64,000 bases of DNA, from NCBI GenBank assembly GCA_044892525.1, contig CM097885.1, forward strand, positions 15,128,001 to 15,192,000, read 5' to 3'. This DNA is from Schmidtea polychroa. Lineage: Eukaryota. This document shows positions 16,712 to 61,171 of this stretch, piece after piece. The position numbers were made by a program, and so were the translations under genes. Numbering within the stretch: the first letter of the stretch is position 1; every line of letters begins with the position of its first letter. Below the pieces are notes generated by a model. The model made no database searches and was not told the DNA's origin. It saw nothing but the letters and a program-made list of their open reading frames with translations.

Positions 16712-16749
<38 letters not shown>

Positions 16750-20262: not shown

Positions 20263-20901
20263 CAAAGGTTTCATTGATTGTATTAGATAACTGAACTATA
20301 TGTGTATCCAGACTATGTGAGTTTTTGTGTATATAAACGGTCACATTAAGTGACCACTGCTTATCTGAATTTGACCTTAATCTGTTTAATAAAAATTTTT
20401 TTCCGGTTTATTGATTTATTTGAATAACATAGGTACGATGTGCATAAGAATTGCAGGGCGCAATTTTAACGGGCCCCGGAGTGATTTGTTGGGCTGATAA
20501 CTAGGTGGGACCCAAAGATCATATAAAATGACAAAAATAGAACTTAAATTAAAGGGGAAAGGACCAAATAAAAGAGTAACACAGGGGAGATAAGAAACCA
20601 ATAATGTAAAATAAAATAACAATAAAAACCTCTAATAACAATAAAAACATCTAAGAGGAAAAAATAAAGAAAATAACCAAAAATGACGGAAATAACGATA
20701 ACAAATCTTAAAATAGAAACAATAGTTGATAAAAAAGAAGTAGAATAAGAAAAATACGAGAAAACACCCCACAACCCTCAAAATTTAAGAAAATAAGAAT
20801 ATTAAAAATTATTTATTAAAAAAGTTGCAGAAATAATAAAGAAAATATAAGAAAAGAATAAAAAAGGAGAAAAAGGAATAAAAACATAATAATACAACTT
20901 A

Positions 20902-20935
20902 CTGGATTCTGATTGGACAGAATCCAGTATATAAG
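20902..20935 (+). promoter_or_regulatory. Inverted CCAAT box + TATA promoter of unit A
   Basis: CTGATTGG 20909-20916, TATATAAG 20928-20935; same arrangement in four other units. Confidence 0.7.
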
Positions 20936-23900
20936 GAAATAGAGCGATAAATCCATTCAGTTTTTAAAATTTCACTTAAGGTACTACCGTGCAACGAACC
21001 TATACCATTCATATTCAACAGGATAAAGCTAATTAATCACCTATCAACCTATTTACTACTCACCAGTTATCGGCTCAACTAGGAATTTTCGAACAGTTAT
21101 ATTTTCATTTTCATATAGAATGATAATTTGCTTTTATTATGATGCTAATAAATAACCGTAATACACCACTTGTTCTCAGTTCTTTTGGTAGTAATTAATG
21201 TTTTATTAAATAATAATTATGTTTTGTCATGTATAGCATTTATGAAAATAATATTTTTATTCATCATTCGTTTCTTTTGTTATATGCATTCAAATAATAA
21301 TCATTCCCTTGAATCTATGTATAAGTAACAATTTGATGGGTAGATCGTTCGAATATGGCAATAGAAGAATGTGATGCACAGTAGAGAATTCATGAGACGA
21401 TATGACTCGGATCTTGGTAGAGATACTGGAATTTTAGCAAAGTATCGTGTGGCAATCTTAGGAGATTCGATCGAAGTGGGGAAAAGTAAAATATTCGTTT
21501 AGTCGAAGATCCATGAATCGAGAGATTTGAGAAGAGCGGAAATAGCGGGGAATGATCCATGACGAGGATGCAGGGATGAGATGGAGTTAGGAGTGAGCGG
21601 TAATCCATGGGAGAGATAGAACGAAGATGATCGATTTGCAGAATATTGATGTAGCCAGCTAAATTGATTATGGATATGTATGATCAGGAGAAGTAGGATA
21701 TGGAAAAAGGAGCTCTATAGTGAAATTTAGGTTTTGGCATGAATAGTTGTGGCAGAAATCAACCGGATATTGATCATGAGGTAGCGGTAGCATAGGTCTG
21801 TGAGGATGGGAATGAACAGAAAATTGCCATTCGAACGATCTACGACTTATTTATCATGATTTAAAATATTATTATTTTAATTACCTTTGATATTATGTTG
21901 ATGATGAGGGGTGGACTGATTAGCCAGGAGGACGTCTGGAACTGTTGATACTCGTATCGATAGGGCACAGATCGTCTTGCTGGATGATTAGTCACGGGTA
22001 TTTGAGTGAAATTATGAACGAATATGAATGAAGAGGGATGGATTCTCTGGATCAGCAATCACAATGTTTCTCCGATTTCACCTTCTATGGTAGGGTAGAG
22101 AGCGCTTTTCTGGACATCACGAAAGACACAGACTTCTTCCTTTTTCGATTTATTCATCTTGTAAAGGGATAGCTTCCGAGACGTGCGACAGAGGGATAAA
22201 ATCCAATTTTCTTACTTCTCCAGTTTGTAATTTTAACGGTTTGATCGCTAACCAGTAGACACCGGTAGTCGCAAAATAACATATCCGTCTTCTTGTACCA
22301 ACTCGTGGGAAACCTGATCTCGTGCACTGATAAAGAACCCCTACAAAAATTCCAGACAGTAAATATCCGATAAAAAATTGACGTTAATAGAGAGTGCCGA
22401 TGTATCCACGATAAACATTCCCTTTTCGATTATTAGATTTCGTTGGTTATAGACGACGTCTGAAGCAAATAGGCATTAGGAGATCCTGATAAATATTTAG
22501 ATAATCTAACTTGTTATGACATAAATCGCGGGGCATAAACTTTACCAAAATCGAATAAACACTCGTGTGTCTATGGGGTCGTCCATCATTGGTAAAAATG
22601 GCAGGTGTTAACCTTCAGAAATTCTTCGTCTCAATTAAATTTCCCTCGCGATAAATAAGATAAGACACGTTAATTACCACACCTTATCAATTGCGAGATA
22701 ATACCCGAGGAAAAGAGAGAAGAATGTCGAAATGTCGATGACATGACAACGGGAGTGCGATAGAAAATACACATATACATTGCGTCACACACACACTAGT
22801 CGCCGGTCACCCATCAGCACACCAGCGCACAACAAAAAAATCCCCGTAGCGACGAGTGTTGCAAGTACCGTAGTAGTCGGGTATGTTTGACTCGCGGAGT
22901 AGATTGTTCGCCAAATAGGCGTGTATAGAATCGTAATATGGCTTTCGTGTAGCAGGTTCCTGATCAGAAGGGGAAACGAATTTTGCGTACCTACAAACGA
23001 TTACATAGATTTTTTTTTGTAAATTAAATTAACATCCACACACCTAGTCAACTAAGCACTCTTATTAACGAATTATTATTAAATTCTGGCATGCTTTAAA
23101 GATCGCAATAAAACAGTTTGGTATGTGACTGCCTGACCACTTTACGAGATGCAATATAGAAAAGGAAATTTTGTATCTGTCAGGAAAATAATAAATCATA
23201 TCTGATATTATTTATTTAGCAGGTGAAATATAAAAATGATCAGAAAAATTGTTAAAATAATCTAGTCTATATTGATTCTCTAGTATGTTTGTCATTTGTT
23301 CTATATAATCTCCTCGTGCAGCTTTGCGCCGAAATTTGGCAAAAGGGCCAGGGCGATAAATATAGCATTTTTCGCATCCACTTATATCCACACTGGGATT
23401 CGAAGATACCCTTCGTGAAAGGTGTTTATTGGAAGGATGAAATAGGATCTTGCGACTAGGGTTTAGATACAAATTACCGTGATTTTCGGACCGAACCCCC
23501 CCCCCCCCCCCTTCCTCAAACCTTCAAGACCTTAACAACCTAATAGCTTACTCTCTGAGTAAAAATGGGCTGAAGATAAAACTGAATGATAAAGCTGATT
23601 AATTAATAAATTCTGACCATTTCACTGATATGCGGTAACTATTTCTAAATCTAATTTTCTAGTTCTATTCGAAATGTCTAAACCAAATCTTCCAACGACT
23701 GGCCCGAGACCGTGCTTCTCGTGTGCCGATAAGAATGTATTACTAAAAGAATCCGCAGAGTACATAGGATCGCTAAAGTGGAAAATCGATAACTTAGAGG
23801 GTACCTGGTTTACCCCGGCCCTCATGAAAGAGGCCCAGATAAAAATTCTCAGACTCGAACACTGTCGGGATAGTCTGCTCGAGGAAAGTCGGAGCCAGCG

Positions 23901-24157
23901 GCCAGGCCCGACGCTAGAGTATTTGGCGCCCTAGGCAAACTAAAAAAATGGCGCCTCTAGTCTAGAAACAAACCCAATAATTAAAGAAGTAAATGAAAAT
24001 AAAATAACTATACTTCATTTATTTATTACACAAAAATATATATAAAAACAAAAACCATTTAAAATTTAATTTTTCGTGCTTTTAGTTTAGCGAAATCTTC
24101 AAGCAGCAACTTCGTATCTATATCACGCGCCATTTCGTGTTCAATCGACAATGTTTC

Positions 24158-25423
24158 TTATGCATGTTCTCTTATGCATATGGGATCTAAATCACAATTT
24201 TCTGTATTTGTATGGACAAAACGAATAATCAACGTCATTTGTTCAGTATGGCTAACGTCTGGTGTGCAATCCAGGATTATTGAAAAATATTTAGCCATGG
24301 AAATCGATTTTAAAATTTTTGTTTTAATACTCTTAGATAAAAGTTGTATTAACTCGATCTGAATATCTTTTCCCAAATAATGAACTTGTGTTTCATTGTT
24401 CTTTATTCTGCGAAGATGCTCACCCATAATTGGATCAAAAGAGGCCAAATATTCTACAAAGCTAAGGAAGTTTCCATTTCCAGGAGAATACAATTTTTCA
24501 TTGCTTCCGCGAAATGCAATATTTTGCGTAGCAAGCACTTTAACTAGACCTATAAGACGCTCTAAGACTTGTTGCCAGTGTCTCTCTTCTTGTTTTATGA
24601 GACGCAAATTATCCTGGTCAATAGTTTTATTCTTTTTTAAACGCAATTCTAGCTCCTTCCAAGTTTGAAAATTAATTAAATGATCCTTATTTTTCTCATG
24701 TCTTTCTAAAATTACAGACATATTTTTCCAATCGCTTGATCCTTTATCGGAGAGATGTATTACACGCTGGTTATTATTAAAAATTTTGCAACAAAAGCAG
24801 AAAGCCGAATTAGTTGTTTTGGAATACTGTAGCCAATGACGCCGCATTTCTTCTCCATTTGCAAGTCTCCTTCTATAAAAATTCATTGAAAATTTTCTAT
24901 GGCTCTCATTTTGAGGAAAATCAAATTCTTCAATTTGTTCTGGTCCGTGTTCAACCAAAATTTGCCTCAAACGGCCAGAACGTAAGTCATGTGAATTTAA
25001 CCAAGTTGCCGGATCACTATAATCAAGACTCGAATTTACGCTTTCTAATATTTCCAAAGTTTCATTAATTAAAATTTCTTCAGTGTCTTCTATAGTTTCT
25101 AATACAATTTCTTCTATAGGTTCTTCAACAGTTTCTTCAATTGTTTCAACTTCAGTTTCTTCTATAGTTTCTTCCACATTCGTATGTGGAAACTCAGTCA
25201 AAATAGGCACCTCTGCATTTCTAGTTGTAGAGTTCCTATCCATTTGCTCTTCCAAATTGCAGTATACTTGTTTTCTCGGAGTCATTTCATTTCGATTTTT
25301 ATCTTGTGATTGTTGACGACAAATATAATTCAGAAAAGCACCTTCTTGCTTTTTTTCTTCATTTTTCTTTTCAGCTTTACGTTTTCTATTTTGTGCGCCA
25401 GATAATTTTTTTCTATCTACCAT
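24158..25423 (-). pseudogene. hAT transposase N-terminal half (TTF zinc finger, DUF4371), C-terminal deletion
   Basis: WLQYSKTTNSAFCFCCKIF; NIAFRG...GNFL; FSIILDCTPDVSH; ORF breaks after the first catalytic Asp, and the tail LSIEHE...FAKLKARKIKF* follows at about 24150-24065. Confidence 0.9.
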
Positions 25424-25897
25424 TATGCTACCTCAAGTAAAAATTAATAGAATATAATAGATTTAATAATAGGTGTAGAAAAATCCAATATAAATTAAAT
25501 TACTGTGTTGTATATATGTAAAAATTATACTGGAAGTACGACCGAAATTATATATACTTTAAATAAAAAAAATTTGAGCCCTGCACTAATTAAATTTTAT
25601 TTTTTTTTTCACTTTCTGTTTATTTATTTTTTAACTTTTTTAACATTTACTTTAGTCTTTTAAAACTTTACTGCATGTGACTTTATTCTTTTAAAATAAA
25701 ACTAAAAATTATTGCGTAATTTAAAAAAATTTCAGAGCATGCTATATGCTAAATTTTTTTTAAAACCGCGTTTCAGTTAACTTTTTTGAACTTGCAAAAT
25801 ATTTTTTTAAATCGATTTTCCGTTGTATTTTTTTAAATTTTAAAAGAAATAAGTAATCGGTATCGGACTAAAACAACGATGGAATTACATGTTTTAC

Positions 25898-25901
<4 letters not shown>

Positions 25902-25960
<59 letters not shown>
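25902..25960. repeat. (TA)n microsatellite
   Basis: Direct reading. Confidence 0.99.
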
Positions 25961-25962
<2 letters not shown>

Positions 25963-26937
25963 AATTCATACATATGTATATATCAATATAAAGATAGAAA
26001 GTTTATAAAATATTTAATTTACTTGATAAAAAAAGCAGAACTATTTGGCGCCCGCTTGTAAATCGGCGCCCTAGGCTGCTGCCGACGTCGCCTATGCCTA
26101 AAACCGGGCCTGCCAGCGGCTCACCATCAAAGCACAATCGGCGGCTCTCCGCCGCATCTATTCGGAAGCCGAATTGAAGGCGCGCATAACCGAGTATCCT
26201 CTCTCGGATAAGGGAAATCCTTTCCCGCAACACCACGAGTAAGTCAACTGGAGCCGGCTCACCCAACTTGCTGTAGTTCCCATGGCCCAACGGTCGTGTC
26301 CCCCGTCGTTGCGGACGTTCTGGAAACGCAAATTCTGGCATCTATACCTTCACTCGTGAATCCTACAAACCCCTTGACGTCTTTGCAGGTAACTCAATCG
26401 GAACTGGTCAAGCAGAAGCGGAAAAAGCAGTTGACACGCGCAGAAAAAACAAAAAAAAACGACGGGAGGAAATTTCTGCTCTGGAAGCGACCTTATTCGC
26501 CATCACTCAGGCAAAAGTAGTACCTCCTACGGGTTCCGTTGCGCAGGTCAAAATCGTGTCAACTACAGTCCCCCGTCGACTCTCGACCCAGTGTTGGAAT
26601 GCGACATCGACGCAATGTTGGCCGAAAGGGAGATGTTCTCGCCAGTACTCCACCTGAAGGGTTCGTCACAATCCCCCTCCAGTCTGACAAATGACTATCG
26701 TAAATTCTGTGAGCAACTATTTGTGATCATGCGTTTTGGTGTAAATTTGTTATGTGTTAAATTTTTGTTGTTTTGTCTGATGTATTTAGAAGCGGATTAA
26801 ATATAATGTATGTTAAAACGCGAAATGTCGTCTCATTGTTTGTTGAATCATCAATTCAACGCTCTAAACACTGTGTTGTAACCGTACAGACAAATCGAAA
26901 AGACCTCACCTGGACCAGAGGCAAATTGCTGATTGAT

Positions 26938-27076
26938 GTAAGTCCTTCTACGGCCTTATAGAACCCAAACAGCGAACACTTTGAGGAGTAGTTTTAGCAA
27001 CAGACCTCACCTGCTCACGGGTTTCGACCTCGGTGGACAACACCAACATGACTCTTTGTCATGGGTACACCAGAGG
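26938..27076 (+). ncRNA. Conserved two-hairpin cis RNA motif, copy A
   Basis: GTAAGTCCTTC; TGAG-GAG...CTC-ACCTG-CTCA; outer stem with 8-nt bulge AACACCAA and inner CATGAC/GTCATG hairpin. Confidence 0.6.
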
Positions 27077-28183
27077 AAATATGTCGATAAGTCATTTTGG
27101 GTACTTGGTAGAAACAAGACTAATGGTATAGGCAACCCCTAGTTGCGTCAGTTGCGATGAGCACACCCAGGTACCCAACACAACCGAATTATAGAAACTT
27201 TAAGTAATGTCTATTGAGGAATATGATGCCCCCACTGCTATTGGGAAAGATGATGTTTTGAAAAATATTATACCAGCGGTTATTGAAGATGAATCTGATG
27301 CCCCAACTCTGGATGCTCCTATGCGGGATGCATTCTCTGAGGATGCCCTCTCTGAGGATGAAACAGATTCCGACATGGAATCACAATGTTAGTTTTTTAT
27401 TTTTATATATTTATTTTAAAAAGTTTATTATTTTCAAAGTACTTTTTCTATTATTATTATTTTTGATGAACATTTTCATAAGATTTTCATTAAGATTTTC
27501 ATTAGTATTTTCAGAAACACTTTATTTCCATAATTTCATTAACATCAGGAACACATGAATTTCAGGAACATTTTCATAGTTTCATTTAAATTTTCTTAGT
27601 TTCATTAACATTTTCATTATTCACGTGATAATTTAGGAAAATAATAATAATAGAAATATTACGTTAAATATAGTAATAATTAACTCANNNNNNNNNNNNN
27701 NNNNNNNNNNNNNNNNNNNNNNNNNNNNNNNNNNNNNNNNNNNNNNNNNNNNNNNNNNNNNNNNNNNNNNNNNNNNNNNNNNNNNNNNNNNNNNNNNNNN
27801 NNNNNNNNNNNNNNNNNNNNNNNNNNNNNNNNNNNNNNNNNNNNNNNNNNNNNNNNNNNNNNNNNNNNNNNNNNNNNNNNNNNNNNNNNNNNNNNNNNNN
27901 NNNNNNNNNNNNNNNNNNNNNNNNNNNNNNNNATATATTCTCTCTCATTATAATAATACAACAAATTATATAGATATTAAGTGTTAATAATTAATCCGTT
28001 TTATAATTATTATATAATAAAAACGGATTAACTACTAACAATTGGTAATAAATATTTAGATAAATATTCAAATAATATTTATATAATTATTTAAAGATTT
28101 ATCGTTATTAGGTCAATTATACCCACGTTACTGCCAGGCTTCTCGACATTCAAAATCTTATCATAAAATCATGAAAAAATATT

Positions 28184-28903: not shown

Positions 28904-29594
28904 ACGAATCAGAACTGGATAATCCTGGTCAGATATTCAAATATGAAGACATTGGCCCAATTTTTGGTGGCTTGAGTCCTGATTTTGACGAGGAATCAGA
29001 AAATGACATTTACGTTCGTGAAATCGGAATCGATATTGACAATGTTATTTTATTTTTGATCTGTTATTTAATATATTTTTTAAAAAATGATTTATTTGAT
29101 ATTGATTTATAAAAACTTTTTATAGAAAACTGGTTATAGTTTTCACAGTTCTTACAACTGTTAAACGCTTGTATAAATGTATTTATAAAAATTTGATTAT
29201 TCCAAATGTTAACTTTTGTAAGAATTTTGGTAGAAATTTTATTATTATATTTTTATTGCAGTGGACACGCAACATTATTTATCGGTTGATAGTATTTTTA
29301 TTTTATTTAAAACTCTAAAGGTAATTTNNNNNNNNNNNNNNNNNNNNNNNNNNNNNNNNNNNNNNNNNNNNNNNNNNNNNNNNNNNNNNNNNNNNNNNNN
29401 NNNNNNNNNNNNNNNNNNNNNNNNNNNNNNNNNNNNNNNNNNNNNNNNNNNNNNNNNNNNNNNNNNNNNNNNNNNNNNNNNNNNNNNNNNTCAACAAGCG
29501 GTTACTAGTTACTAAGGGATGATAGTCCAAAACAGAATGACCTTACAACATATCCTGCGGACCGCTGACCAAAAACCCACACGACTATTTCCAC

Positions 29595-29728
29595 AACATG
29601 ACACCCATGATTTGCATCATGTCGGTACTGTACCATGCCGGCGAGCTACGGTGAAGCAGGTGAGCCCCTGCTTTAGGACTACTCCTTCACCCTAACTCGA
29701 CTTTTCGACTGCCAATAGAAGGACTTAC
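29595..29728 (-). ncRNA. Conserved two-hairpin cis RNA motif, copy B
   Basis: GTGAAG/CTTCAC outer stem with ACCTG bulge; second hairpin with AGTACCGA bulge and CATGAT-GCAA-ATCATG. Confidence 0.65.
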
Positions 29729-30151
29729 GTCTTTTCTACTATTCGAGATGCTGGTCAAGATCACGTGACTCCATTATCCATTACTACTTCATCACCACAA
29801 CTCTTCACTCACTTCGACATTACAGAACCGAATACAACACAAAAATCAACAGAACTCCCTTACCACTTGACTCAACATTTATTTGACGAAATACCTTTAT
29901 GACACCGATTATTACCGCCTATTGGGGTAGTTTTACACAACCTTCCTATTATTAGAAAATCAAAAAAAAATCAGACGACAGAAAGGCTACTCATTCAATC
30001 ACAATATCAAGATGTTTATACAAATATTACAAAGTCTATGGGGAAGTCCCAGCGAAAATCATGTCGAGATCAAAGAAATCTCTCGCGTCTTCTTCCCAGG
30101 TAGTGCTAGAGGTGGGCACTACTCGAAACGTAGGCGGTGATCGGACTGCTA

Positions 30152-30796
30152 CTATCGCTGGCAATGTCTGGAGTTTCTGCGTAGCTTCGGCGACCAGTTT
30201 CGCCTCCCGCTCGGCTTGAAGTAATTTTCGTCTTTCGTCCGTTCGGCTCGGGTTGGTTGCCGTCTTTTTGAAGTGTTCGGTGATACCAGGAGAGTGACCG
30301 CTTCCGGTACGACGACTGGCCTCGGAGGGGCTTGGTTGATGCCGGTGATATTGACGTCCGATTGTACGGATGGTAATAGGGTGTCTACACAACTAGTGCA
30401 AGCCTTGCTTGTTGATCGAATCGGGCTTGTTGAGCGATGATGATGAGGGAAAACATTGTCTTCTTCCGATATCGGTATATTAGCGATCGTCTTAGTAATA
30501 GTCGCTTGCACGTAAACCTTGTGCAGGGCCTCTGATTGTTCCTTGATTAATAACCGTAACGAGCGACTCTCTTCGATCATACTATCGCGGTAGTGTTCGG
30601 CCCGCGCCAGTTTCAATGGTACCTCTTTCATTTGCGCAGGTGAAAAGTAGGTACCCTCTAGATGGTCCGATTTATTTTTTAGCAATCCTATCTGAGTCTG
30701 CAGGGTCTTAATGATGGCATTCTTATCAGCGCACGAGAAACATGGCCGAAGAATAGTTGTAGCTTTTGGAGTTTTCGACATGTCTAAAATAACCAA
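30152..30796 (-). CDS. CxxC/coiled-coil LTR ORF, copy B (214 aa, intact)
   Basis: RPCFSCADKN, EGTYFSPAQMKE, EHYRDS, CTSC, KRRQPTRAE; overlapping ORF 30036-30392 ends TWEEDARDFFDLDMIFAG. Confidence 0.7.
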   Translation of the reverse strand: MVILDMSKTPKATTILRPCFSCADKNAIIKTLQTQIGLLKNKSDHLEGTYFSPAQMKEVPLKLARAEHYRDSMIEESRSLRLLIKEQSEALHKVYVQATITKTIANIPISEEDNVFPHHHRSTSPIRSTSKACTSCVDTLLPSVQSDVNITGINQAPPRPVVVPEAVTLLVSPNTSKRRQPTRAERTKDENYFKPSGRRNWSPKLRRNSRHCQR

Positions 30797-33525
30797 GTAA
30801 AGACAGTAAAATCATGCAACATAATGGCAGGCGTAGTAATAATTTATAGTACGCAATCATATCTCATGGTCGTCGACGGCAGTTAGGAGAATAAAGAAAG
30901 TATCAACTTCGCCTCATACCTTCGCGTCGGAGAGGTCTCCCATTTTTGACGATGCCAGCCCGTAGGCTCGTTAACTCAAAACAGAATTATTTTGTCTCAG
31001 TTATTGATTTAATTCCCTAGTTTGTAAGGTATTTACCCGAGTTGAGTTGTGGTTCCCTGCATAAAATATCTAAATTATTTAATTACTTATCAAACCCCAA
31101 CCATTTACTTAAATTATCCGATATAATGCATTCATTGGATAACATACTCGATGACTTATCGGAATTATTCGTTCGTAGAAAAAGCATCCCAATGAAATTA
31201 TATTACTCGATTTTTGGAATAAATCAAAACCTACTAGAGGAGAATAATTGTATACTACCCACCCTTTGCGATTATCCCATGTGATAACTTAAGTCGGGCA
31301 TTATCCAAATAGATAAATGAATTCCATAACATCAACTCTCCTCTTATTATTTGTCATTAAGGTCATTAGCTATACCATTAGGATGATGTTTATATCTATA
31401 GTCAGGACTATTAATTATTATTATCATTATCACGATTGGCATACCATTATAACCCTGATTGCTGCCCTCATTATAAATATCATCACCATTACAGTTGTTA
31501 CTATCATGATTATTGCCCTTATTATCCTCACTACAATCTTTATGGCTATTATTATTAGTATTGTCATTAACATTATAATTGTTATTGTGAGCATCACTAT
31601 AGCCATGGTCTCCGGCTTTATTGTTATCCTTTTATTTCATGGTTATTCTAATTGTTATCATAATAATTAACATATTCGCTTAATCTTTATCCAAAATATG
31701 ATTATTAATGATTTAGCTTGAGAATTGCCGATTGAGAACTAGTCACCAGTACTATGATTAAATTCTCGCCTATCTATCTACATGTTAGAAAAATCGAAAA
31801 AGTCGCACACTTTACTACCCATCGGATTTGACTCATACTGTAGTAATGCCGTTATCTGCGAATCATATGCAGTGATTATGTCATCTAGGCACCGCATGCC
31901 GTTTACCCACGATCTCACCTATTACGAAATTGGAAACCTGGCAGTTTTCGAATTTTACAGAGTGAGTTGTGATAAGAGTAGATTAGGTGCTGTGTATGTT
32001 ACCGTTCTGTCTCAGCAGCGGTGTTACCTAGTGTCGTGAGTAGTGGTTATCTGCAATTCGATTTCGATGCGGCTGGGCATGGTTGGTGATCGGAGTCTAT
32101 TCATTATCATATTCCAGATGTCGCGTCAACTGCCAAGACTTTATCATACAGAAAATGAGTTCAATGTCCATTCTTCATTTCACTACGAACGCACTCGTCT
32201 AGATCTCATTTTCCAGAAAACTGCTAATCGGATGGGATTCTATATCACGAAGAGATCAAATGAGCGGTGGATATGACAATTTCAAGAAAAGACTTTCGAA
32301 ATCGAATTCACATGGCATTTTAATTTTTCCGATGAAGATTCACTACACCTGGAGGCGAAGCCTGATACAGTGAGATTTAGTACTGCGCCTTTAACATTGA
32401 AAATTCATTTCTAGATGAAGAATGGACATTGAACTACGGGCTCCCTCAGTCATTGCGAGTACTTTCGTTCTCTTAGTAAGAAAGTTATAGTTTCATTTTA
32501 CTATGGTAATTTGAAAAAAATCTCTCTTTCAGATAAAGTTACAGTTCACATCCTGTGGCGACAGATCAGTGGAGAAACCCCCACAAGATGACCCGATCCC
32601 AACCACTACGACGCTGAAATATCGTCTGACCTTCTGGCAAGAAGAACAACAAGTGTCTCTCGAGCTGTGGCCTGCCGAACCCCAGTGTCGTGGAATATAA
32701 AAATCATAATCTCATTGTATCTTCAATAAACTGTTTCTAAGAATAGATCAGTCTAGCTCATATTCAATCATTTTAAGTTCACCCATAAATCGAATTGACG
32801 GTTTAATATATCTACACTTAGGAAATAAAATAAATAATCGCAAATCATTTATTTATGAAATCATTACTTTGCTTATGCATTTACTTAGAAAATTCAACAA
32901 AATATGAACCGGTAATTTAACAGAAAGGGAAGCTAACCATTACAAATTTTCAAAATAATTTACATATATGAATAAAAAAAATCATATAAATAGAAGTTTA
33001 CTTTCTGCTTGAAATCCGGATTTGTAATAGAATGATTCATTTCTCGCAAAATCTGTTTACACTGTTGAGTCCTCGAGTGGCTTGTCGGCTGTATGAATTA
33101 TTAAAATGTCCCTAGTGATAGTTGAATGTAGATTGTCGTAACTAAGTTTGTTGATTTTTAACATTGAAATTTTTATTTCGATGTTGTCCTTATATAGTCG
33201 GTTGTGAAATGCGCGGGCCAATCAGAATTGAGGCGCCGTTAATTTATTTAATTTAATTTAAATTCTATGTTTTGTGTTAGTTTTCATAGTTTTCCTTATT
33301 TTTTCTTATACTTTTATTTATTTTCTTAATTTTTCTATTAAATGCCTAATTTTGATGTTGTTTTCTTAGTTTGATCGGCTTTTCTATCTTGATTTTTTAT
33401 TTTTATTTTTTGTTTTAATTCTTTTATGTTTTTTTTATATTGCTGCACCTTTATTGTGTTTTCTAATTTTTCTTATTTATTCTATCTAATTTTATTTCAG
33501 CCCAACAATAATAATAATAATGATA

Positions 33526-33560: not shown

Positions 33561-33991
33561 CATAATATCATTGTGAGAAGTGATCAGTACCCTTGCTTGA
33601 AAATATCTTTGAAAATAATAATAATATCATTGTGAGCAGTACCCTTGTGACTTGTTGAGCTTGACCAGTACCCTTGTGAGCAATATCCATAGGGGGACAG
33701 AATATTTTGTCGGATAAACTCGCAGTATATGTTACAGTGAATTTGTATTACCAGTGAGAATATGTTTTCACTGGTGAAAATATATTTTCGCTAAGCCGGT
33801 CAGTGAATGTATATTTAACAATGAAGATACAAATTCGCCGGTTACATTTAGTGTGTTCGTATTCATTGACAAGCCGCGTGGAAATATTTGGCCCTAAGTG
33901 TCGATGTGCCGCCCTACCAACTGTCAATTTTATTCGCTTCGTCGCATGGGGATAAGGATCGGAGCCAAGATGGGATCCAATGGACCATTTG

Positions 33992-34432
33992 TCATAGACC
34001 TAGAGCCTGAGAGAACCGGGGCGAGAATGGGTGGCAATTGTGAGCCATGCCCCTTGCAGCTGGTCGTTGATGAGGCTTCAGGCGACTGATGATGTATCGG
34101 GAACACATTAGTCCCGTCTTGGATGGGATATTCTCGAACTCTTTTGGCGATTTCGGTGTCCTGTAGATCTTGTGTAGGGCCTCGGATTGGGCTTTTATCG
34201 TTAGTCTCTGGCACCTACTTTCTTCCAGGAGACTGTCACGGCAGTGCTCCAATCGTAGAATTTTACTCTTCTCCTCTTTCATTTGTGGCCGGGAGAACCA
34301 CGTCCCTTCATACAAGTCGATGCGCTTTTTTAGTGCCCCAATATAGAGATGAAGTTGCGCTATGTCTGCGTTTTTGTCTGCGCAGGAGAAACACGGGCGA
34401 AGGTCTTTGTTGGAATTGGTTGAAGTAGACAT
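33992..34432 (-). pseudogene. CxxC/coiled-coil LTR ORF, copy C (frameshifted C-terminus)
   Basis: RPCFSCADKN...EGTWFSRPQMKE...LEHCRDSLLEESRCQRLTIKAQSEALHKIY. Confidence 0.8.
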
Positions 34433-35102
34433 CTAAAGATCAAGTCGTTTGAGCGTCATTTATAATTTCGAGTGCGAGTTTTATAATATTATCAATCCTT
34501 CTACTTGGTAATGACCCACAAAATCCATATCGCTCGTCAACATTCATGCCCATTCATCCTCTAGCATTCAAGTTGATCCACTCAATTCATTTACTACGAC
34601 TTCCACTTTAGGTTTAATTTTCGGATTTGACCATTTCCGTCTAATGTACTTATATTAATTTATTACGGTTGGTTCTATCATCTTTATTTTTCATCTCTTA
34701 TTAATTATATTTTATTCCTCTTATATTTTATTCCTTTATTAGATTATGTGTGCGTTGTATTAAAAAAGAGTAGTTCAGTGTTACTGGTGTCTCTTGGTGC
34801 TGCATTAAGCCTGAACAAATTTATAAAAGAATCGAAATGTATTAATTTAAATTTTTATTATAAATTAAAATTTGATTATTTTAAATCGTGCGCCGTAAAT
34901 GTCGTCATGGCGACGCCTAGCTGCGTGCCGTTGTGTTAGTAAAAAAAAAAAAAAAAAAATCAAATTTTATTTTAATCAATTGACGGCACTTGGCTAGGAA
35001 GGGGAGAACTTCTCACCCTTAGAGTTCTGTAGCTTTTAATTCAATGACCGATGGATACCAGAGTTATAAACTCAGGTATCAGAACGTGGGTTTCCAAATG
35101 GG

Positions 35103-35204
35103 TTGGAGTAATTGGAGCAGTTGGAGTAATTGTAGCAATTGGAGTAATTGTAGCAGTTGTAGCAGTTGGAGCAATTGGAGTAATTGGAGCAGTTGGAGTT
35201 GGAG
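35103..35204. repeat. 9-bp degenerate tandem repeat (TTGGAGTAA/TTGGAGCAG), about 11 units
   Basis: Direct reading; minus strand would encode Pro/Thr-rich PTAPITPIA repeats. Confidence 0.9.
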
Positions 35205-36197
35205 ATCGTCATTTAGTTGGGAGAAAGATGGTGTCAGAGTTATGGATTCTGCAATAGTGGTAACATTATCTTGGTAGAGTTTTGGGAAGTCATCATCGTA
35301 GGAGTTTTCAGTAGTTTAAAGATTTGGTGCAGGTGTTCAGAATTTAGAGGTTTGGATTGGTCTTGATAGGTGGAGGTGATCGATATTGCACGATTATTGA
35401 TGTTGGTGTATATTTCACTGTTTGGATTGATTGTAGTAGTTGGAGTAAATGGAGCAGTTGGGGAGGTCCGCCATTTGAGAGGAATACCGGATCGTACATG
35501 ATAATATCTGAAATAAATAAATGTCGGGGCAGGAAGGCTCCCTTGCAAGGTTTATATATCGCATATTATATTACTTATTATAGTATATATTGGAAGGAGT
35601 TGGTGAAGGTTGGGATAAGTATGGTAGTGATTATAGTAGTGATAGTATAATAAAGATCATTATAGTATTGATAAGAACAACTAAAAAGACCACCAAATAG
35701 GCAGAACCCCTACAAGGATTCCTACATTAACCCATTCGGTGATTGGCACACGCAGTACATTATTAATNNNNNNNNNNNNNNNNNNNNNNNNNNNNNNNNN
35801 NNNNNNNNNNNNNNNNNNNNNNNNNNNNNNNNNNNNNNNNNNNNNNNNNNNNNNNNNNNNNNNNNNNNNNNNNNNNNNNNNNNNNNNNNNNNNNNNNNNN
35901 NNNNNNNNNNNNNNNNNNNNNNNNNNNNNNNNNNNNNNNNNNNNNNNNNNNNNNNNNNNNNNNNNNNNNNNNNNNNNNNNATTAGCAATAACAATAATAA
36001 TATTATATTAAATACATTAAGAATAATAATATTACACCATTAGGAATTATGGTCATTAAGTTAATTTAGAGAGTTTAGATATTTATATAGTTGATTAGTA
36101 ATAGTAAATAATATAGATAATAGCCATAGTACACAAATAAAATAGGATAATGCTCTGAGTATATATTATATATCAATATCTGGGTTTCAAGATTGGT

Positions 36198-38798
36198 TTA
36201 CCAAGAGACAAAGAAAATTGTAGAGGGGTGATATATAATAACCATAGAATACAAATAAATAAAAGATGCTTTGGCTACAAAAAGATAAATATATAAGTAT
36301 AATTTATTTTTATAAATATGTTGACGATATATGTGGTAGCTGCTATTGATTGCAGCTACGCAAGCTTTTTTGGCTAGTTCCTTTATTTCATTATTGGATA
36401 GGCCGATAATTTTAAGTATCGAGTCATTATTTTTGTCCCATGAACCAAGGGTGCCAACTACCAGGGCATGTAGAGTGTGTGGGCATTTATGGAGTCTACC
36501 TATTTCCTCTCCTAGTTCCTTAAATTTGTAATAGTTATTTCTCCTAGAGTTGTCGTAGTTTTCTCTGGTGTCGAAAGGAACCTTAATGTCTAAGATATGG
36601 ATAGATTTGTTACGCTTAGATTTTAGAAGAAGATCGGGCTTAAGGGTGGAATTGGTACCTTCAGGTACTTTCTCTATGTCTACTTCATAGTTAATAGATA
36701 TAAGGAAGTTTGCCACAGTTTCTAGGACAATATCATGCTTATTTCGTCTTGCATTAATACGTGCTTGGCAATGATTAAAGATGTGTGCAGGTGTTTCTGG
36801 GTGGGCATGGCAGTGCCGGCAGAGTATAGATTTATTAGTCTTTAGGCGGTGTGGTGAGTAGTTCAGTTTTAGAAGGTTGTTGCGTGCGCGAATAAGAAAG
36901 AGGAATTGGGCATCAGGAAGGATGTCACTTTTAAAGAAATAGTCGGCGATGTTGCTTTCGCTAATTGCCTTTGCCATATAGCCCTGGCATTTCATCGCAC
37001 ACCAACGTTCAGCATGAATAAGGCCAATAATAGAGTGTAGTTCAGCTGAGGTTCTATCCACATTAACGAGGGAGAAGTAATTGATACGACTCTTATATTT
37101 TATTTCAAGCTGTAGAAGGTCCTCAAGCATTACAATTTTGGTAGATATACCGTAGTTATGAAGCAGACGGCGGGCGGATTTTTTAAATTTTGAGAAGATG
37201 GAGAAAGTTGGGTAGCTTTTAGAGAGTTGGCCATTCAGCCAGGACAGTGCCACATTTAAATCTCCTTGTCCCCTAGCCTCGATAAGTTCAGCAGTAATGA
37301 GAGTCTTAAAGTTAAGATCGCTAGAGTTTAAAGCCCTGATAAGTTGTACGATGCTTTGAATAAGGTATTCGTCAATGGATGATACAAGTCCAAGACCACC
37401 AAGCTTGCAAGCTGCATATAAGAAGTTGTCGTTCAGCTGCATTATCCTATCGCCAATGGATCTTTTAATACCCTGTTTTATTTGCAGGTCGAATCCATAT
37501 TGTTGTATTTCAGAGTTACGAAGGATGTTGCGCGGAGAGTCAAGGATGTTGTGGTTAATGACACAATTTCTAAAAGTAAAGTTCAAGCGGGAGTGGATGA
37601 ATACTTTAAAGGCATTAATTTTTTGCGAAGGATGTAGATGAGAGTTGAGAATTTTGTTTGTGTCTATAATAGCGGAGTCTAGTCTTTCTTTGATACAGTG
37701 TTTAGTTTTATGGGAGAAGTCAACCCCAAGATATCTGTACATATTAGAGTCGTCAATTTTTGGAAGGGTTTCGCCATAGAGTAGAATAGGTTGGTAGTTG
37801 CAGTCGTGATCAACATGAAAGTATCCGGATTTCGAGGGTTTAAAGCGTAGGTTGACCTTTGTTGCAAGGGAGACAGTGAGAGATAGGGCCGACTTGATAT
37901 TGGAGTAGGAATCAGATATAAGCACTATATCATCGGCATACGCAAGAATTCTAATGTTGTGATTATGAAAGAGAAACGGGTGAGTTTGTAAGACATTGCG
38001 GAGTATGAAGTCAATGGATAGACAGAACAGAGTCATGGACAAGGGGCAGCCTTGTTTCACACCTTTATAAATTGGTGTATAATCAGATTTTTCTCCCTCA
38101 CATTCAAAGTAAGTTTGTACATTGTTGTACATGTCCTGAAGAAGAGCAATAGTGGTGTTGTGAAGACCCATCTCTGAGAGAGTGTACCAGATGAGTTCAT
38201 GTGGAATAGATCCGAAGGCATCCGCTATATCTAGCCAAATGATATGTAGGTCGTTTTTCTTGCGATAGGAAGAGTCTTTTATGAGATGGAGGATAAGATT
38301 GTGTTCAGCACATCCATCCGGTGCGCAGATAGCTTTTTGGTTAGGTGTTAGGAGATTTCCGTTACTGATCCATTCAAGAAGACGGTTATTCATTAGTGAG
38401 GCAAATATCCTATAGGCAGTGTTCATAATTGAGATCGGTCTCCAGGAGTTAGCCTCGTGGCTTATTTCAGCTTTACCAGATTTAAGAATGAGTCGGGTAC
38501 GAAAGGATTTCCAGCATACTGGAGATCTGGAATTACGAAGGATGTTGTTACATAAGGCAAGGATGAGCTCAAAGTTAGGAGATATCTTTCTCCAATCGCT
38601 AAGAGATATTTTATCAGTACCAGGGGCAGTATTGTCGAGTTGGCAGAAGGTGCTTTTAATGTCATCAGTGTCAAAGGGAGTGATGGTGAAGGATTCAGAG
38701 AGTGTTGGGTACTGATAGTTAAGGTCAAAGGTGCAATCAGAGGTTTTGCTAGCGAAGAGTTTTAGGATACTATCCATATTTGGTGTGTGAGTTTTCAC
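36198..38798 (-). CDS. Reverse transcriptase + restriction-like endonuclease
   Basis: WRPISI, GCAEHN, GVKQGCPLS, LAYADD, YLG; CRHC...HIFNHC zinc knuckle; KPDL...ILDIKVPF. Confidence 0.95.
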   Translation of the reverse strand: MKTHTPNMDSILKLFASKTSDCTFDLNYQYPTLSESFTITPFDTDDIKSTFCQLDNTAPGTDKISLSDWRKISPNFELILALCNNILRNSRSPVCWKSFRTRLILKSGKAEISHEANSWRPISIMNTAYRIFASLMNNRLLEWISNGNLLTPNQKAICAPDGCAEHNLILHLIKDSSYRKKNDLHIIWLDIADAFGSIPHELIWYTLSEMGLHNTTIALLQDMYNNVQTYFECEGEKSDYTPIYKGVKQGCPLSMTLFCLSIDFILRNVLQTHPFLFHNHNIRILAYADDIVLISDSYSNIKSALSLTVSLATKVNLRFKPSKSGYFHVDHDCNYQPILLYGETLPKIDDSNMYRYLGVDFSHKTKHCIKERLDSAIIDTNKILNSHLHPSQKINAFKVFIHSRLNFTFRNCVINHNILDSPRNILRNSEIQQYGFDLQIKQGIKRSIGDRIMQLNDNFLYAACKLGGLGLVSSIDEYLIQSIVQLIRALNSSDLNFKTLITAELIEARGQGDLNVALSWLNGQLSKSYPTFSIFSKFKKSARRLLHNYGISTKIVMLEDLLQLEIKYKSRINYFSLVNVDRTSAELHSIIGLIHAERWCAMKCQGYMAKAISESNIADYFFKSDILPDAQFLFLIRARNNLLKLNYSPHRLKTNKSILCRHCHAHPETPAHIFNHCQARINARRNKHDIVLETVANFLISINYEVDIEKVPEGTNSTLKPDLLLKSKRNKSIHILDIKVPFDTRENYDNSRRNNYYKFKELGEEIGRLHKCPHTLHALVVGTLGSWDKNNDSILKIIGLSNNEIKELAKKACVAAINSSYHIYRQHIYKNKLYLYIYLFVAKASFIYLYSMVIIYHPSTIFFVSW

Positions 38799-38806
38799 TT
38801 CATTAT

Positions 38807-39568
38807 TTAAATTTTGGAGATTTCCTCTTTAGGGGCAAATTTATATTTTTGTCTCTTGGTAAAGACCAGTTCTTTACTAACCTTATAATTTTTATGAATT
38901 ATGTCCGCTGCTTTCTTTGTGATGTATTTATGAGGATTAATGCTTCCATTAATTCTCTCAATCTCACTTAAAGCAGCATCGCACTCTATTAGATTATTGT
39001 TAAGATTAATAATTAGACAATTGATAAATGGTCGGAATCTCCGCACATCATCAATTGGCAGTTTGCAATAATTATAATTATTTATAGTAGTTTTAATATT
39101 ATTTATCATATTGGGTATATTAGGACAAGTTAATTTTTCACGTTTAATAAGGCATTCGATAAAGTGACATATATAGAAGGCAGAGTCAGTAGGTATGAAG
39201 CAGCGAGGGTAATCGGGGTTTTGAAGTTCAATTTTGACAGGGCTAACAATTTTTTGGAGATCAAGAATGGTTTCGAGAATATTTTGAGCTAGAAAGAGGT
39301 GAGTAGAAAGGCCATCATCCAGAAGCGGGTCAATGAGGACGGCAAGTCTACGGTGTTTGTCGAGTAGAAAAAAGAACCAGTTGTCCTTACCATCAGACAT
39401 GGGCATGATAATCTCATTCCATTGAGCAAATTCAGAGAATGGAAAGGTGGCAAAGAAAGTTACATAGTTATGCTGGATAAGTGCATTTCCTATGAAAGGG
39501 TCCACAAAGATAGAGGAGTTTTTCAAGGCATTTGAAAAGATGTATGCCTTGATTGCGTGTTGGGACCA
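38807..39568 (-). pseudogene. Ulp1-like cysteine protease domain with altered catalytic residues
   Basis: WSQHAIKAYI...IIMPM..DNWFFFLLD...VLIDPL...PTDSAFYICHF follows the Ulp1 layout; His>Asn, Cys>Ser. Confidence 0.6.
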
Positions 39569-42500
39569 TCATGTCGACTCTTTCTCAACATTATTACCAA
39601 AAATAAGGGTATCAGGAAGAGGTCGTTTGACAATTTCACTTTCAGAGAAGGTAGCCTCAAATTCTTGCGACTCAAGTATAGGGCGTAGGTTGTTCACATT
39701 ATCGGGGGAACTATCCATTACTTGGGAGATCACAGGCGGAGTGGGGATATTGCCCGGATACACGTAAGGTTCAGGGTGGTTTTCGAGAATATGTTGTCGG
39801 ACATGGTGATGAGGGATCCATGATCCGCAGAAGCAGTATACCTCCTCGTCAGGATAAAAGATAAGTTTTTTATGCTTGACCTTTATATGGTTAATAATGG
39901 TCATAAGAGGGGTGTCAATGTCGAAGGTGATTTTACATTTTTTACGATTTTTGCTATAGTTGAAGCAGGTAAGGTTATTGGAGGGTGATATCCGTATTTC
40001 AGCGCGGCTCATATATTCAAGATCACATTGGTCTATGTGTTGAAAATGGACAATGTGATTATAGATTTGTTTGAAGGTTATAGGATTTGGCGCGTATTTA
40101 TTCTCACCGGGGGCTCTACATTGAATGCAATCAATAAGTGTGTTTTCGTCAATTTTTAATCTATGAAAGTCCCATGCGTGTTTAAAGATTTTTTTACGAT
40201 TATGGACAGAAATAGGACTGCATAGGGTTGTCTTGCATTTCAATCTGCATTCAATTTTACCCCTACCATTAAGTTTGAAAAATATTTTGTTGTCTAGTTC
40301 ACTCTCATCTGCAGTTTTTGGGATGAAGACATTGCGTGTGTGTTTGGCTAGTGTAATGGGTCTGAGATAATTAGGAGATGGGCCAGGGATATTAGTCGCA
40401 AACACTTGTATTTTTTTATTAAATACTTCCATTTGTGATTGTATTCTTAATGCCTCTTGGATTTCGTTGCATTCAGATTCAGAAGGAGTAGGTGCGGTGA
40501 TTTTAGGTGTACTGCTAAGCTCAATAGCGTTGGTAGTTTTAGATTGAGTAAGTTCAGGCGTATTATGAAGAGAGGCAGTTGTCATAGGATGTAGGTCAGT
40601 GTTGTTGTCGGGAGAGGAAGAGGCTGTGGGCTGGAGAGGTGGTTCTTGGTCGATAGAGGCTATACTGCTGCTCGATAGATTCACATCATCTATGTCCGAG
40701 TTAAAAAGATCATTGTTTGGCTGGGGATTTACAAGAGATTGAGAAGGGTTATGAGGAGTTTGAGAATTAGACTCATCCATTGGAAGGGGGTCAATGGTGT
40801 CATCAAGGTCACAGCTGTAGTGTGAAGTGTCAAGAATGTAATCAGAGCAAGAGGAGGACGAGTGGTTAGGCGAGAGATCAGAGTCATTGTCAATAGTATC
40901 ATTTAATGGAGATCGTTTAACATGGGGAAGGGCAATGAGGGAATCATCAGTATTGTTCTCATAATTATTAATTTTATTTTTATTTTTATAAATAGAGTAA
41001 AGGGTTGTGTATTTACCCTTACGTATGATTTTTTTAACAAAACACGATTTTATTACTTTATTATTGTTATCGTTATAAGTTGGGGGAAGGTTTTTAAGAT
41101 CCTTGGGCTTATGGATGAAGTCATTGGGAATAGGCTCAGAATAATGACGTTTCATTGAAGTTCCAAGGTTGTTATTTGAAGGATTTACAGGTATAGTTGG
41201 GATATTTGAAGAGTTAGCTAAGTAATTGGGCTTGTTTAGAGAAGTAAGAAAGGTATCAGTAGCTTGGGAATTTGCTGGTTGTGTTCCAGTTGAGTGTTCT
41301 AAGGTAGGCGAAAGACTAACAGGATTTCCACTGAAGGTGACTGTCTTTGCAGATGCGAGGCGGCCGTAGGCCTGCGAGCTGCGTGTTTTCTCGTGTTCCG
41401 AAGGAACACGAGAAAAATTTTTAAGAGAAAAAGCATGGTTAAATAAATGATATTTAAACAAAGATTTATCTTTGTTTAATATAGATAATTTATTTAAGCT
41501 AATAAAATCAGAAATATTATTAAATATAATGCTAATTAATTCGTTAGGGAGTCTTTCGGTGGAGTTTTGAATTTTATTATAATCAATAATTATTTTTTTA
41601 ATAACATATTTAATTTTGTTCTTAAAAAATTTTTCATAATTATAATTAGTTAGGTCATTTTCATAATTATTATTTTTATCTTTTAGATTTAGATTTTCAA
41701 CATTTAAATTGGAAGTATATTTAGAATTATAATTAGTTTGGACATTTTCATTATTATTTTTATCCTTTAGAATTAAATTTTTATCATTTAAATTGAAAGT
41801 ATATTTAGAATTATAATTAGTTTGGTCGTTTTCATAATTATTATTTTTATCCTTTAGATTTAAATTTTCATTATTTAAATTGAAAGTATATTTAGAATTA
41901 GATTTAATTAAATTACAATTATTACAGTTTAATTTCAATTCATAGTTTTTAAAATTTAAATTAAAATTATGATTATCAAAAATTACATTACAATTTTTAC
42001 TATTTAAATTGCATTTACAATTATTACATATTAATTCGTGAATAGACTTTTTATGATTATAATCATTATAGAAATTTTGATTATAATTACCTTTATTTTT
42101 ATTTAGGATGTGAATCCTCCGAGCAGGGCAAAAGGCTTTCCAAGAAGTATCTCTGGTCGGGTCCGAGGATGCATTCTCTGGAGCAATAATATCATAACAA
42201 GGAGGAGAGATTCCGTATTTCTTCAGGATCTTCCTGGCAGGACAGAATCTGCTATCCATCACCTCACAGTCGTCTGGTTTCCTTGGAGCATCAAGATTCG
42301 ATACATCAGGGCAGGAGGCATAAGGTGATTCAAGGAATCGGATTTCATTATTTCTATAAGGAGGATTAGTAAATGTTGAAAGTAATTTATCCTTGATGCC
42401 ATTTCCCGGATTGGAGCTTCTTCCATTTCTGTTTGAAGGAGCTTTATCGGATCTAGAAAGGAGATTAGACTGTGATAAAATCAAATTTTTATTAATGATA

Positions 42501-42655
42501 TCTCCAGGATTGGAGTTTCTTCCATCAGTAAACGTATCGTCATGTTCAGAGTCCTCAGCCGATTTCTGCCCAGTGCTATGAATGATATATAGCAGTAGTT
42601 CTGCTAAGCACTGGGTAACGGCGGGTAATAAGTATTTGAATAGATTGACTTGCAT
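39569..42655 (-). CDS. N-terminal region of the NeSL polyprotein: C2H2-like fingers, low-complexity linker, inserted Asn-rich segment
   Basis: 1028-aa ORF with four Cys/His clusters near its C-terminus; separated from the Ulp1-like part by a single in-frame TGA. Confidence 0.75.
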   Translation of the reverse strand: MQVNLFKYLLPAVTQCLAELLLYIIHSTGQKSAEDSEHDDTFTDGRNSNPGDIINKNLILSQSNLLSRSDKAPSNRNGRSSNPGNGIKDKLLSTFTNPPYRNNEIRFLESPYASCPDVSNLDAPRKPDDCEVMDSRFCPARKILKKYGISPPCYDIIAPENASSDPTRDTSWKAFCPARRIHILNKNKGNYNQNFYNDYNHKKSIHELICNNCKCNLNSKNCNVIFDNHNFNLNFKNYELKLNCNNCNLIKSNSKYTFNLNNENLNLKDKNNNYENDQTNYNSKYTFNLNDKNLILKDKNNNENVQTNYNSKYTSNLNVENLNLKDKNNNYENDLTNYNYEKFFKNKIKYVIKKIIIDYNKIQNSTERLPNELISIIFNNISDFISLNKLSILNKDKSLFKYHLFNHAFSLKNFSRVPSEHEKTRSSQAYGRLASAKTVTFSGNPVSLSPTLEHSTGTQPANSQATDTFLTSLNKPNYLANSSNIPTIPVNPSNNNLGTSMKRHYSEPIPNDFIHKPKDLKNLPPTYNDNNNKVIKSCFVKKIIRKGKYTTLYSIYKNKNKINNYENNTDDSLIALPHVKRSPLNDTIDNDSDLSPNHSSSSCSDYILDTSHYSCDLDDTIDPLPMDESNSQTPHNPSQSLVNPQPNNDLFNSDIDDVNLSSSSIASIDQEPPLQPTASSSPDNNTDLHPMTTASLHNTPELTQSKTTNAIELSSTPKITAPTPSESECNEIQEALRIQSQMEVFNKKIQVFATNIPGPSPNYLRPITLAKHTRNVFIPKTADESELDNKIFFKLNGRGKIECRLKCKTTLCSPISVHNRKKIFKHAWDFHRLKIDENTLIDCIQCRAPGENKYAPNPITFKQIYNHIVHFQHIDQCDLEYMSRAEIRISPSNNLTCFNYSKNRKKCKITFDIDTPLMTIINHIKVKHKKLIFYPDEEVYCFCGSWIPHHHVRQHILENHPEPYVYPGNIPTPPVISQVMDSSPDNVNNLRPILESQEFEATFSESEIVKRPLPDTLIFGNNVEKEST
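41640..41900. repeat. 84-87-bp tandem repeat x3 inside the ORF
   Basis: Encodes SKYTFNLNxxNLxLKDKNNNxENxxTNYN three times. Confidence 0.9.
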
Positions 42656-53352: not shown

Positions 53353-53491
53353 CCGACGCATGAGCCCGTGGTGATGTTCCACGTTGGTGCTGCCCACACG
53401 GGTCGGAAGAGGTTAGCAGGTGAGCCTCTGCCTTAAAACTACTCCTAACCCCTTCTCGGTTCAGGTTCCTAGGCGCCTTGGAAGGACTTAC
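53353..53491 (-). ncRNA. Conserved two-hairpin cis RNA motif, copy D
   Basis: GGGGTTAG/CTAACCTC outer stem, ACCTG bulge; second hairpin with AGCACCAA bulge and CGTGG/CCACG. Confidence 0.65.
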
Positions 53492-59230: not shown

Positions 59231-59262
59231 ATAAATACGAGGTTTCATTTTATAATTTCAGA

Positions 59263-60999: not shown

Positions 61000-61171
61000 T
61001 TATTAGACAATGAAACATCCATATCTGATACCGAGCCAATGTCCCAACCAAAGTGTCGATTGCTCAGTATCCAGTGCAAATCATGTATGAAGTTCATGCG
61101 AATTTACTTGGGAGTGTGCAATAATAGTTTTTAATGTTTAATGTTTTATAATAATAAATGTTTATAAACAG

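Follow-up and report, generated by a model that had tools for sequence, protein, structure and literature searches.

The open reading frame (ORF) described here, located in a 64,000-nucleotide stretch of the Schmidtea polychroa genome (the window), is a copy of a real, selected and uncharacterised gene carried in the long terminal repeats (LTRs) of a known giant retroelement. The reading placed first, tentatively and as somewhat short of probable, is that of an accessory gene of ~250 aa, expressed from a spliced and polyadenylated message within one LTR, whose product may act as a nuclear activator of element transcription.

LTR units of the window and their host element

The flagged open frame runs from 30152 to 30811 on the minus strand, with its first ATG at 30781, and contains the motifs noted in an earlier sequence-only reading (RPCFSCADKN, EGTYFS, EHYRD, CTSC and KRRQPTRAE). 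When aligned with its relatives, this copy follows one frame to ~30233 and another from ~30254, the change falling at about 30230–30254. The residues after RAERT in the flagged frame are not protein, the 3' part ends in a stop two codons short of the end, and the copy is an old, frameshifted and decayed relic. The unit that holds it (unit B, Table 1) is probably a solo LTR, and its last bases run into a stretch of N that masks any target-site duplication.

Table 1. Features of the window, numbered from its first letter.
Feature	Position	Strand	Remarks
LTR unit A	20661..27180	+	3' LTR of a decayed element; promoter module at 20909
LTR unit B	29491..33507	-	~4.0 kb, holds the flagged ORF; start TGTTGGG at 33507; relatives match along its length to 29510
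Unit B promoter module	33190..33225	-	CTGATTGG (reverse CCAAT box) and TATA box, by motif; 2.44 kb upstream of ATG
Unit B candidate 3' splice site	30784..30793	-	pyrimidine-rich run and TAG, two bases before ATG
Unit B ORF, 5' part	30230..30781	-	CxxC, helical hairpin with EGT[WY]F[ST]P turn, HH, second C-x2-C/H, disordered linker, start of basic helix
Unit B ORF, 3' part	30027..30254	-	out of frame; remainder of basic helix and acidic-aromatic tail
Unit B candidate poly(A) signal	29878..29883	-	AATAAA, 144 nt past stop
Unit B 3' conserved block	29645..29728	-	GTAAGT donor-like site and covarying RNA hairpin, near LTR 3' end
LTR unit C	33951..44450	-	interrupted by RT-bearing non-LTR element; promoter module at 44337
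LTR unit D	53246..55940	-	solo LTR with 4-bp target duplication, nested in unit E
LTR unit E	53142..62794	+	promoter module at 56168
Tandem post-TATA segment, examples	56168-56300, 55449-55330, 44337-44220
hAT, non-LTR and piggyBac-type features	1482-3258, 24158-25432, 36198-42655, 44823-46817, 48396-50105		Pfam

Four copies had been counted in the window. This number is correct for the flagged ORF and the three others detected by tblastn (23674–23901, +; 33992–34432, −; 58607–59266, +; E 2e-25 to 2e-54), but it misses a fifth unit (unit D), which retains only the C-terminal part of the ORF (53792–53953), and the genome family numbers thousands. The location inside an LTR holds for all of the window copies. 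All five LTRs are decayed by frameshifts, deletions, or hAT, non-LTR, LTR or Rep/NS1 insertions. The ORF of unit A (23674–23901 and 26111–26644, +) is divided by a hAT insertion, and decayed accessory ORFs precede this unit at 17233–20262. The ORF of unit C (34432–33951, −) is frameshifted, and that of unit E (58607–59206, with the tail at 62173–62241) is divided by a Rep/NS1 virus-like insertion.

The window is a transposon nest, with hAT transposases, an RT-bearing non-LTR element and a piggyBac-type transposase. Frames without a Pfam match at 15484–16947 and 28175–28903 look by eye like what we take to be N-terminal parts of Polinton-type DNA polymerase genes. The virus-like insertion of unit E (59207–62172) contains a Rep-like helicase frame (60190–60999, recognised by eye, no Pfam match), a Parvo_NS1 frame (61172–61879, Pfam E 8e-14) and a 47-bp inverted repeat (96%) at 62035–62173. 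It resembles the planarian PEVE/PIVE elements as far as the text of PMC3198968 describes them, a likeness drawn from that description.

In the 781-Mb genome, a first look with the four window copies gave 6,522, 5,878, 5,306 and 4,935 candidates, figures that are not copy numbers; 150 candidates were scored per window copy, and the ORF family numbers thousands genome-wide. It comprises at least four subfamilies, with 33–44% protein identity between them. Five spaced pairs were examined, of which three were LTR pairs (3.76–4.16 kb, 99.7–99.98% identical, with TGTTGG..CAACA ends and 4-bp target duplications), one was a tandem duplication and one a pair of unrelated LTRs; a fourth LTR pair was also found. 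The interior between paired LTRs measures 20–25 kb, and the ORF begins ~2.8 kb into the ~4-kb LTR, in the same sense as the polyprotein. The primer site after the LTR matches the 3' end of tRNA-Pro(TGG) genes. These tRNA genes form a tandem array with a 475-bp period, with 2,164 pattern matches genome-wide.

A 4,732-codon frame was present in two of the three LTR-paired elements. According to Pfam, it encodes gag, Zn knuckles, a viral fusion glycoprotein, PR, RT, RH, IN and ankyrin repeats, in this order, and a ubiquitin-like module also occurs in elements carrying the ORF. Downstream of the polyprotein, a RING-MATH ORF and further small ORFs were found, and some of the accessory ORFs are coiled-coil-like. 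By its architecture, and by the published description to which it was likened, the host element is a giant env-bearing Ty3/gypsy with Burro architecture. The planarian giant Ty3/gypsy Burro/GYPSM1, to the extent covered by the text of PMC6431247, shares a length of about 30 kb, a polyprotein of ~4.7k residues and thousands of copies; the gag, Zn knuckles, ubiquitin-like module, in-frame fusion glycoprotein, PR, RT, RH, IN and ankyrin repeats; and a MATH domain in an accessory ORF, which here lies downstream of the polyprotein. The same portion of text names neither an ORF in the LTR nor an LTR intron. No description of an ORF in Burro LTRs was found in the literature searched, and Grohme et al. 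2018, the Repbase entry or figure 2A of PMC6431247 may mark it. BIR and BCL2-like motifs gave no Pfam match at E 0.05 in the single element scanned. By eye, most of the small ORFs of the element (a leader ORF after the primer site, RING-MATH and three further 3' ORFs) start a few bases past a TAG, a pattern which suggests a family of spliced messages.

Additionally, 600 matches were retrieved by their LTR end and primer site, criteria that do not involve the ORF. Among the first 30 of these junctions, 15 had the ORF (12 of them in one frame across the profile) and 15 lacked it. The latter 15 belong to an ORF-less family of ~15.5 kb, which has 1.65-kb LTRs that are 99.8–100% identical and keeps the promoter module and the 3' hairpin block; three of the four followed contain an 877-codon gag-like frame, with no pol or env between the LTRs. 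This family is likely, from its sequence, a young non-autonomous element. Its existence shows that the ORF region is not required in cis, which is what a product acting in trans would lead one to expect. The ORF-less family also has tandem GGGCCAATCCC-like repeats, which were considered as a shared response element and rejected, since they are absent from the LTRs of the coding families (isolated partial matches, 3/23).

One continuous protein under purifying selection

Among 120 loci selected by similarity to the window copies, 45 carry one uninterrupted frame of 238–258 aa with the acidic motif at its end (21, 7, 13 and 4 of the 30 loci of each subfamily), and the breaks in the other copies fall at scattered positions. 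Therefore, what had been taken for an overlapping second frame ending in D(I/L)(D/E)xx(F/L)A is the true C-terminus of the same protein, and the change of frame, for which splicing or frameshifting had been suggested, is decay. The intact product is one protein of 243–254 aa with an acidic C-terminus. The basic tail described earlier was partly an artefact, because the acidic C-terminus of the flagged copy is out of frame by decay: a basic helix does exist, but it is not the end of the protein.

In an alignment of 40 rows, C14, C17, GT[WY]F, P48, E62, R65 and H87 are invariant, C64, H114 and H115 are nearly so, and an Arg/Lys-rich helix is found in every row. The second CxxC, also listed as conserved, is present as such in 18 of the rows but reads C-x2-H in 15. 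It is plausible that these Cys/His residues bind zinc. The last 24 residues contain 4–9 D/E and 5–8 bulky hydrophobics in all 39 uninterrupted rows, a make-up that is that of acidic activation domains. A strongly acidic-aromatic tail is found in two of the four subfamilies, and the other two keep only a shorter D-I-D-x-M-L/I-A motif. The AlphaFold2 model built from the 40 rows (mean pLDDT 65.5, pTM 0.34) shows confident helices at 15–42 and 48–100, joined by the invariant EGT[WY]F[ST]P turn into an antiparallel helical hairpin, followed by a disordered linker, a basic helix at 178–205 and low-confidence tail helices (pLDDT about 50). No transmembrane or signal segment was found in the protein model.

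A GY codon model applied to 39 uninterrupted copies gave an omega of 0.141 overall (2ΔlnL 2,597 against omega 1). By region, the values were 0.044 for residues 11–115, 0.38 for the linker, 0.12 for the basic helix and 0.125 for the tail, so the last two are also selected; within each subfamily alone omega was 0.105–0.176. No sign of positive selection was detected, all region omegas being below 0.6. In the N-terminal domain, pS reached 0.64–0.79, with synonymous sites near saturation, against a pN of 0.05–0.12, and in the other frames, the antisense mirror excepted, pN/pS was near or above 1. The dN/dS among copies is thus far below 1, and the past purifying selection proposed from the motifs is confirmed. 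Because the 39 copies had been chosen as intact, the test was repeated on 114 distinct loci, broken copies included. Shared differences were distributed over codon positions 1/2/3 as 149/66/546, and private differences as 122/115/105: selection acted on the replicating lineages, and the inserted copies drift. On this evidence from the sequences, the ORF is an element gene and not a domesticated host gene.

The earlier statement that no family could be recognised still stands. Nothing was found by a single-protein homologue search (89 candidates) or by an alignment-based search at near lengths (6,903 candidates) or longer lengths (7,999 scored). Viral contigs gave 13 pattern matches, none of them confirmed, and PDB sequences gave four matches, the best with E 0.33. 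In Pfam, only coiled-coil-type matches below the cut-off were obtained, and no gag family for the 40 rows. In the Atlas, the best scores for the N-terminus were 0.91 (unnamed) and 0.90 (Mua), and for the whole protein 0.81, with few shared features. Comparison of the AlphaFold model by Foldseek yielded no specific fold match (0/500 at E 0.001 in the viral library and in the PDB). A SAND domain was considered and rejected: its matches were faint (PDB sequences E 1.2; Pfam 1/40 rows, E 0.04), and the model is all-helical around GxWF[ST]P with no KDWK motif after it, against the beta-rich fold of SAND. The zinc-finger/leucine-zipper N-termini of CR1/L2 ORF1 proteins have a CxxC followed by an amphipathic helix, as in the present protein, which differs in having one CxxC before the helix, a predicted antiparallel hairpin and an LTR context instead of a LINE ORF1.

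The absence of homologues in protein collections and the broken state of most window copies might be taken to mean that there is no gene here at all, the frame being a gag/ORF1 fragment or one kept by a cis-acting RNA or DNA element. This is extremely unlikely in view of the pS, pN and shared-difference values given above. Moreover, the profile, searched at E 10, matched one of the nine ORFs of the element (itself) and none of the ten window ORFs; finding nothing in the polyprotein or the accessory ORFs, it argues against a gag/ORF1 fragment, and the partner family transposes without the region. A structural or trafficking accessory of the particle, such as a coiled-coil partner of Gag or Env, would suit the long confident helices, the coiled-coil-like accessory ORFs of the element and some generic helical-hairpin matches, e.g., to the EHBP1 Rab-binding domain (E 0.6). 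However, these matches are not significant, and the placement behind an LTR promoter, the basic helix and the acidic tail better suit a regulator, which makes a particle role very unlikely.

Likely transcription unit of the LTR

A module formed by CTGATTGG and a TATA box was found ~330–550 nt into the LTR in 16 of 23 stretches, compared with 20 of 1,150 shuffles. Each of the five LTRs of the window has it, and the window contains one more match outside them. The distance from this module to the ATG is about 2.0–2.6 kb in most stretches (~2.4 kb), and a donor-like AG/GT follows it in 11 of 16. Directly ahead of the ATG, at a distance of 0–16 nt, a pyrimidine-rich YAG was present in 83 of 99 distinct copies; among other ATGs, 139 of 2,395 had one. 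The acceptor-to-ATG distances (0, 2, 5, 8, 9, 11 and 13 nt) fall in every phase, which implies a non-coding upstream exon, and no other conserved ORF was found between promoter and ATG. A poly(A)-like hexamer occurs 110–165 nt (~130 nt) past the stop in 38 of 43 uninterrupted copies, compared with 12, 1, 4 and 7 in neighbouring windows. Taken together, the CCAAT and TATA boxes upstream, the acceptor motif at the ATG and the hexamer behind the stop make it likely that the ORF is expressed by splicing from the promoter of its LTR, unlike a U3 gene. The upstream promoter module speaks against an alternative placement in U3, in which splicing would proceed from the donor-like site close to the end of the LTR.

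The rules for the promoter, acceptor and poly(A) motifs were set with the sequences already in view, and two patterns found no copy with the leader joined to the ORF and no intron-less LTR; the promoter, the intron and the R region are therefore inferred. Contigs of four runs, compared with the ORF and LTR end of a young relative, showed no leader-to-ORF joint; one presumed-RNA run mirrored the DNA run, and two covered mainly the LTR end, so that these contigs speak neither for nor against a spliced message. A segment of ~25 nt after the TATA box is tandemly repeated (segment-AG/GTAAG...segment-AG, about 45 nt, at ~380–620 of the LTR). Some copies, including unit B, have one such segment only, the product expected from mini-intron loss or recombination.

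The ORF had been compared with the LTR-encoded genes sag of MMTV and nef of lentiviruses, and the analogy fits poorly. MMTV sag and HIV nef, in the portion of PMC12789967 that deals with them, share with the present gene an accessory ORF in the LTR that is duplicated with it and, probably in the present case too, expressed by splicing. However, sag and nef lie in U3, upstream of the start site, whereas the present ORF lies ~2.4 kb downstream of the promoter motifs and before the likely poly(A) site. Sag is described there as a type II membrane protein, whereas the present protein has no such segment, combines a basic helix with an acidic tail and has no sequence similarity to either.

Further downstream, a GTAAG-type site was found in 57 of 99 copies (strict pattern), followed by a hairpin with two-sided changes at 8 of its 14 pairs, more than in any of 500 shuffles or any slid control, the structure having been derived from the same alignment as the covariation test. 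Rfam contains no family for this block. The hairpin (window 29645–29695 and relatives) includes GGGGCTCA, the start letters of the tRNA-Pro primer site, and packaging or primer activation are candidate roles for it. A second hairpin was seen next to it by eye.

These features bear on a rather unlikely alternative, a Rev/Rex/Rem-like regulator whose basic helix would bind the conserved hairpin, so that the intron-retaining full-length RNA escapes splicing or early polyadenylation and is exported. Genomic RNA has to retain the ~2.3-kb stretch of the LTR that the ORF message would lose as an intron, and it has to pass the poly(A)-like signal of the 5' LTR, two tasks that retroviruses handle by regulation, as far as PMC3694450 and PMC12789967 describe them. 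The Arg/Lys-rich helix is universal in the alignment, and the covarying hairpin is also kept in the ORF-less family. In what PMC12789967 reports of Rev, Rex, Rem and Rec, the basic helix and the conserved RNA hairpin have counterparts here, and a small spliced message and the need to export intron-retaining RNA would be shared as well. However, both the likely poly(A) site and the donor-like site precede the hairpin, a position that would also suit a packaging signal, and the strongest selection falls on the N-terminal domain instead of the basic helix. The tail is acidic with an xxLL-type ending and offers no clean leucine-rich export signal (by eye, against the usual consensus), the Cys/His N-terminal domain is larger than in those proteins, and no similarity to them was detected.

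Candidate functions and their meaning

The basic helix, the acidic-aromatic tail and the short LTR message fit a nuclear regulator of the element. A transcriptional activator is ranked first, and the Rev-like RNA regulator and a host-directed modulator come next. For an activator, transcription would start ~30 nt past the TATA box, a short non-coding leader would be joined to the acceptor at the ATG by removal of ~2.3 kb, and the 3' end of the message would fall ~150 nt past the stop. The ORF would thus lie in a very long R region, and the short message would therefore be the default early product of any LTR. In the protein, the candidate Cys/His zinc sites and the helical hairpin would form an oligomerisation or targeting module, the basic helix would serve nuclear import or nucleic-acid binding, and the acidic-aromatic tail would recruit co-activators. 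The protein would then raise the output of full-length RNA in trans, including that of the non-autonomous partner family without the gene.

Foamy virus Tas, lentiviral Tat and HTLV Tax combine a Cys/His-rich part, a basic stretch and an activation-like segment, as the present protein does. In the relevant text of PMC12789967, they also share the condition of a small early product, which here would raise LTR output, but their genes lie outside the LTR, they have no sequence or fold similarity to the present protein, and activation by the latter is predicted. Against an activator stand the lack of a recognised DNA-binding domain, the lack of a homologue or specific fold match to any activator, and the leader-to-ORF joined copies that the two patterns failed to find. 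Moreover, the tail is of low confidence in the model, its acidic-aromatic form is strong in only two of the four subfamilies, and short acidic helices also serve many non-transcriptional contacts.

The sequence-only reading had favoured a host-modulating accessory gene. Its first half, a selected accessory gene encoded in the LTR, is supported, but host modulation itself received no specific support. In a host-directed role, the protein would be an adaptor that docks on a host protein through its acidic helix and dampens innate sensing, apoptosis or silencing by the piRNA/heterochromatin route. RING-MATH, ankyrin and ubiquitin-like modules occur in these same elements, and a gene in every LTR would give a high dosage. 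The text of PMC6431247 adds BIR and BCL2-like motifs for Burro elements, and that of PMC8532177 places BURRO1 under repression by SMEDWI-2, which would favour such a role. However, none of the searches gave similarity to a host domain, the even spread of private differences over codon positions indicates that inserted copies are not maintained, and the positive selection often seen in host-conflict genes is missing. This role is accordingly judged fairly improbable, and the activator remains the preferred reading.

The accessory genes known in LTRs come from a few retroviruses and are located in U3. If a selected gene lies behind the LTR promoter and has an intron and a poly(A) signal of its own, each LTR would be a transcription unit in its own right, with an implied R region of about 3 kb. 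In the most far-reaching form of this proposal, which is speculative and which we hold as doubtful, every LTR, solo LTRs included, would be a complete intron-containing gene for a new zinc-binding regulator, the element would run an early/late switch in which the factor made from the short LTR message licenses read-through, export or activation of the 30-kb genome, and regulation of the complex-retrovirus type would have evolved independently in a gypsy lineage. If this is true, the host genome contains hundreds to thousands of dispersed expression cassettes. With this gene, the largest known LTR elements, which are shapers of planarian genomes and targets of PIWI silencing, gain a candidate regulator, and the regulation of these elements becomes testable through a small protein rather than through a 30-kb element.
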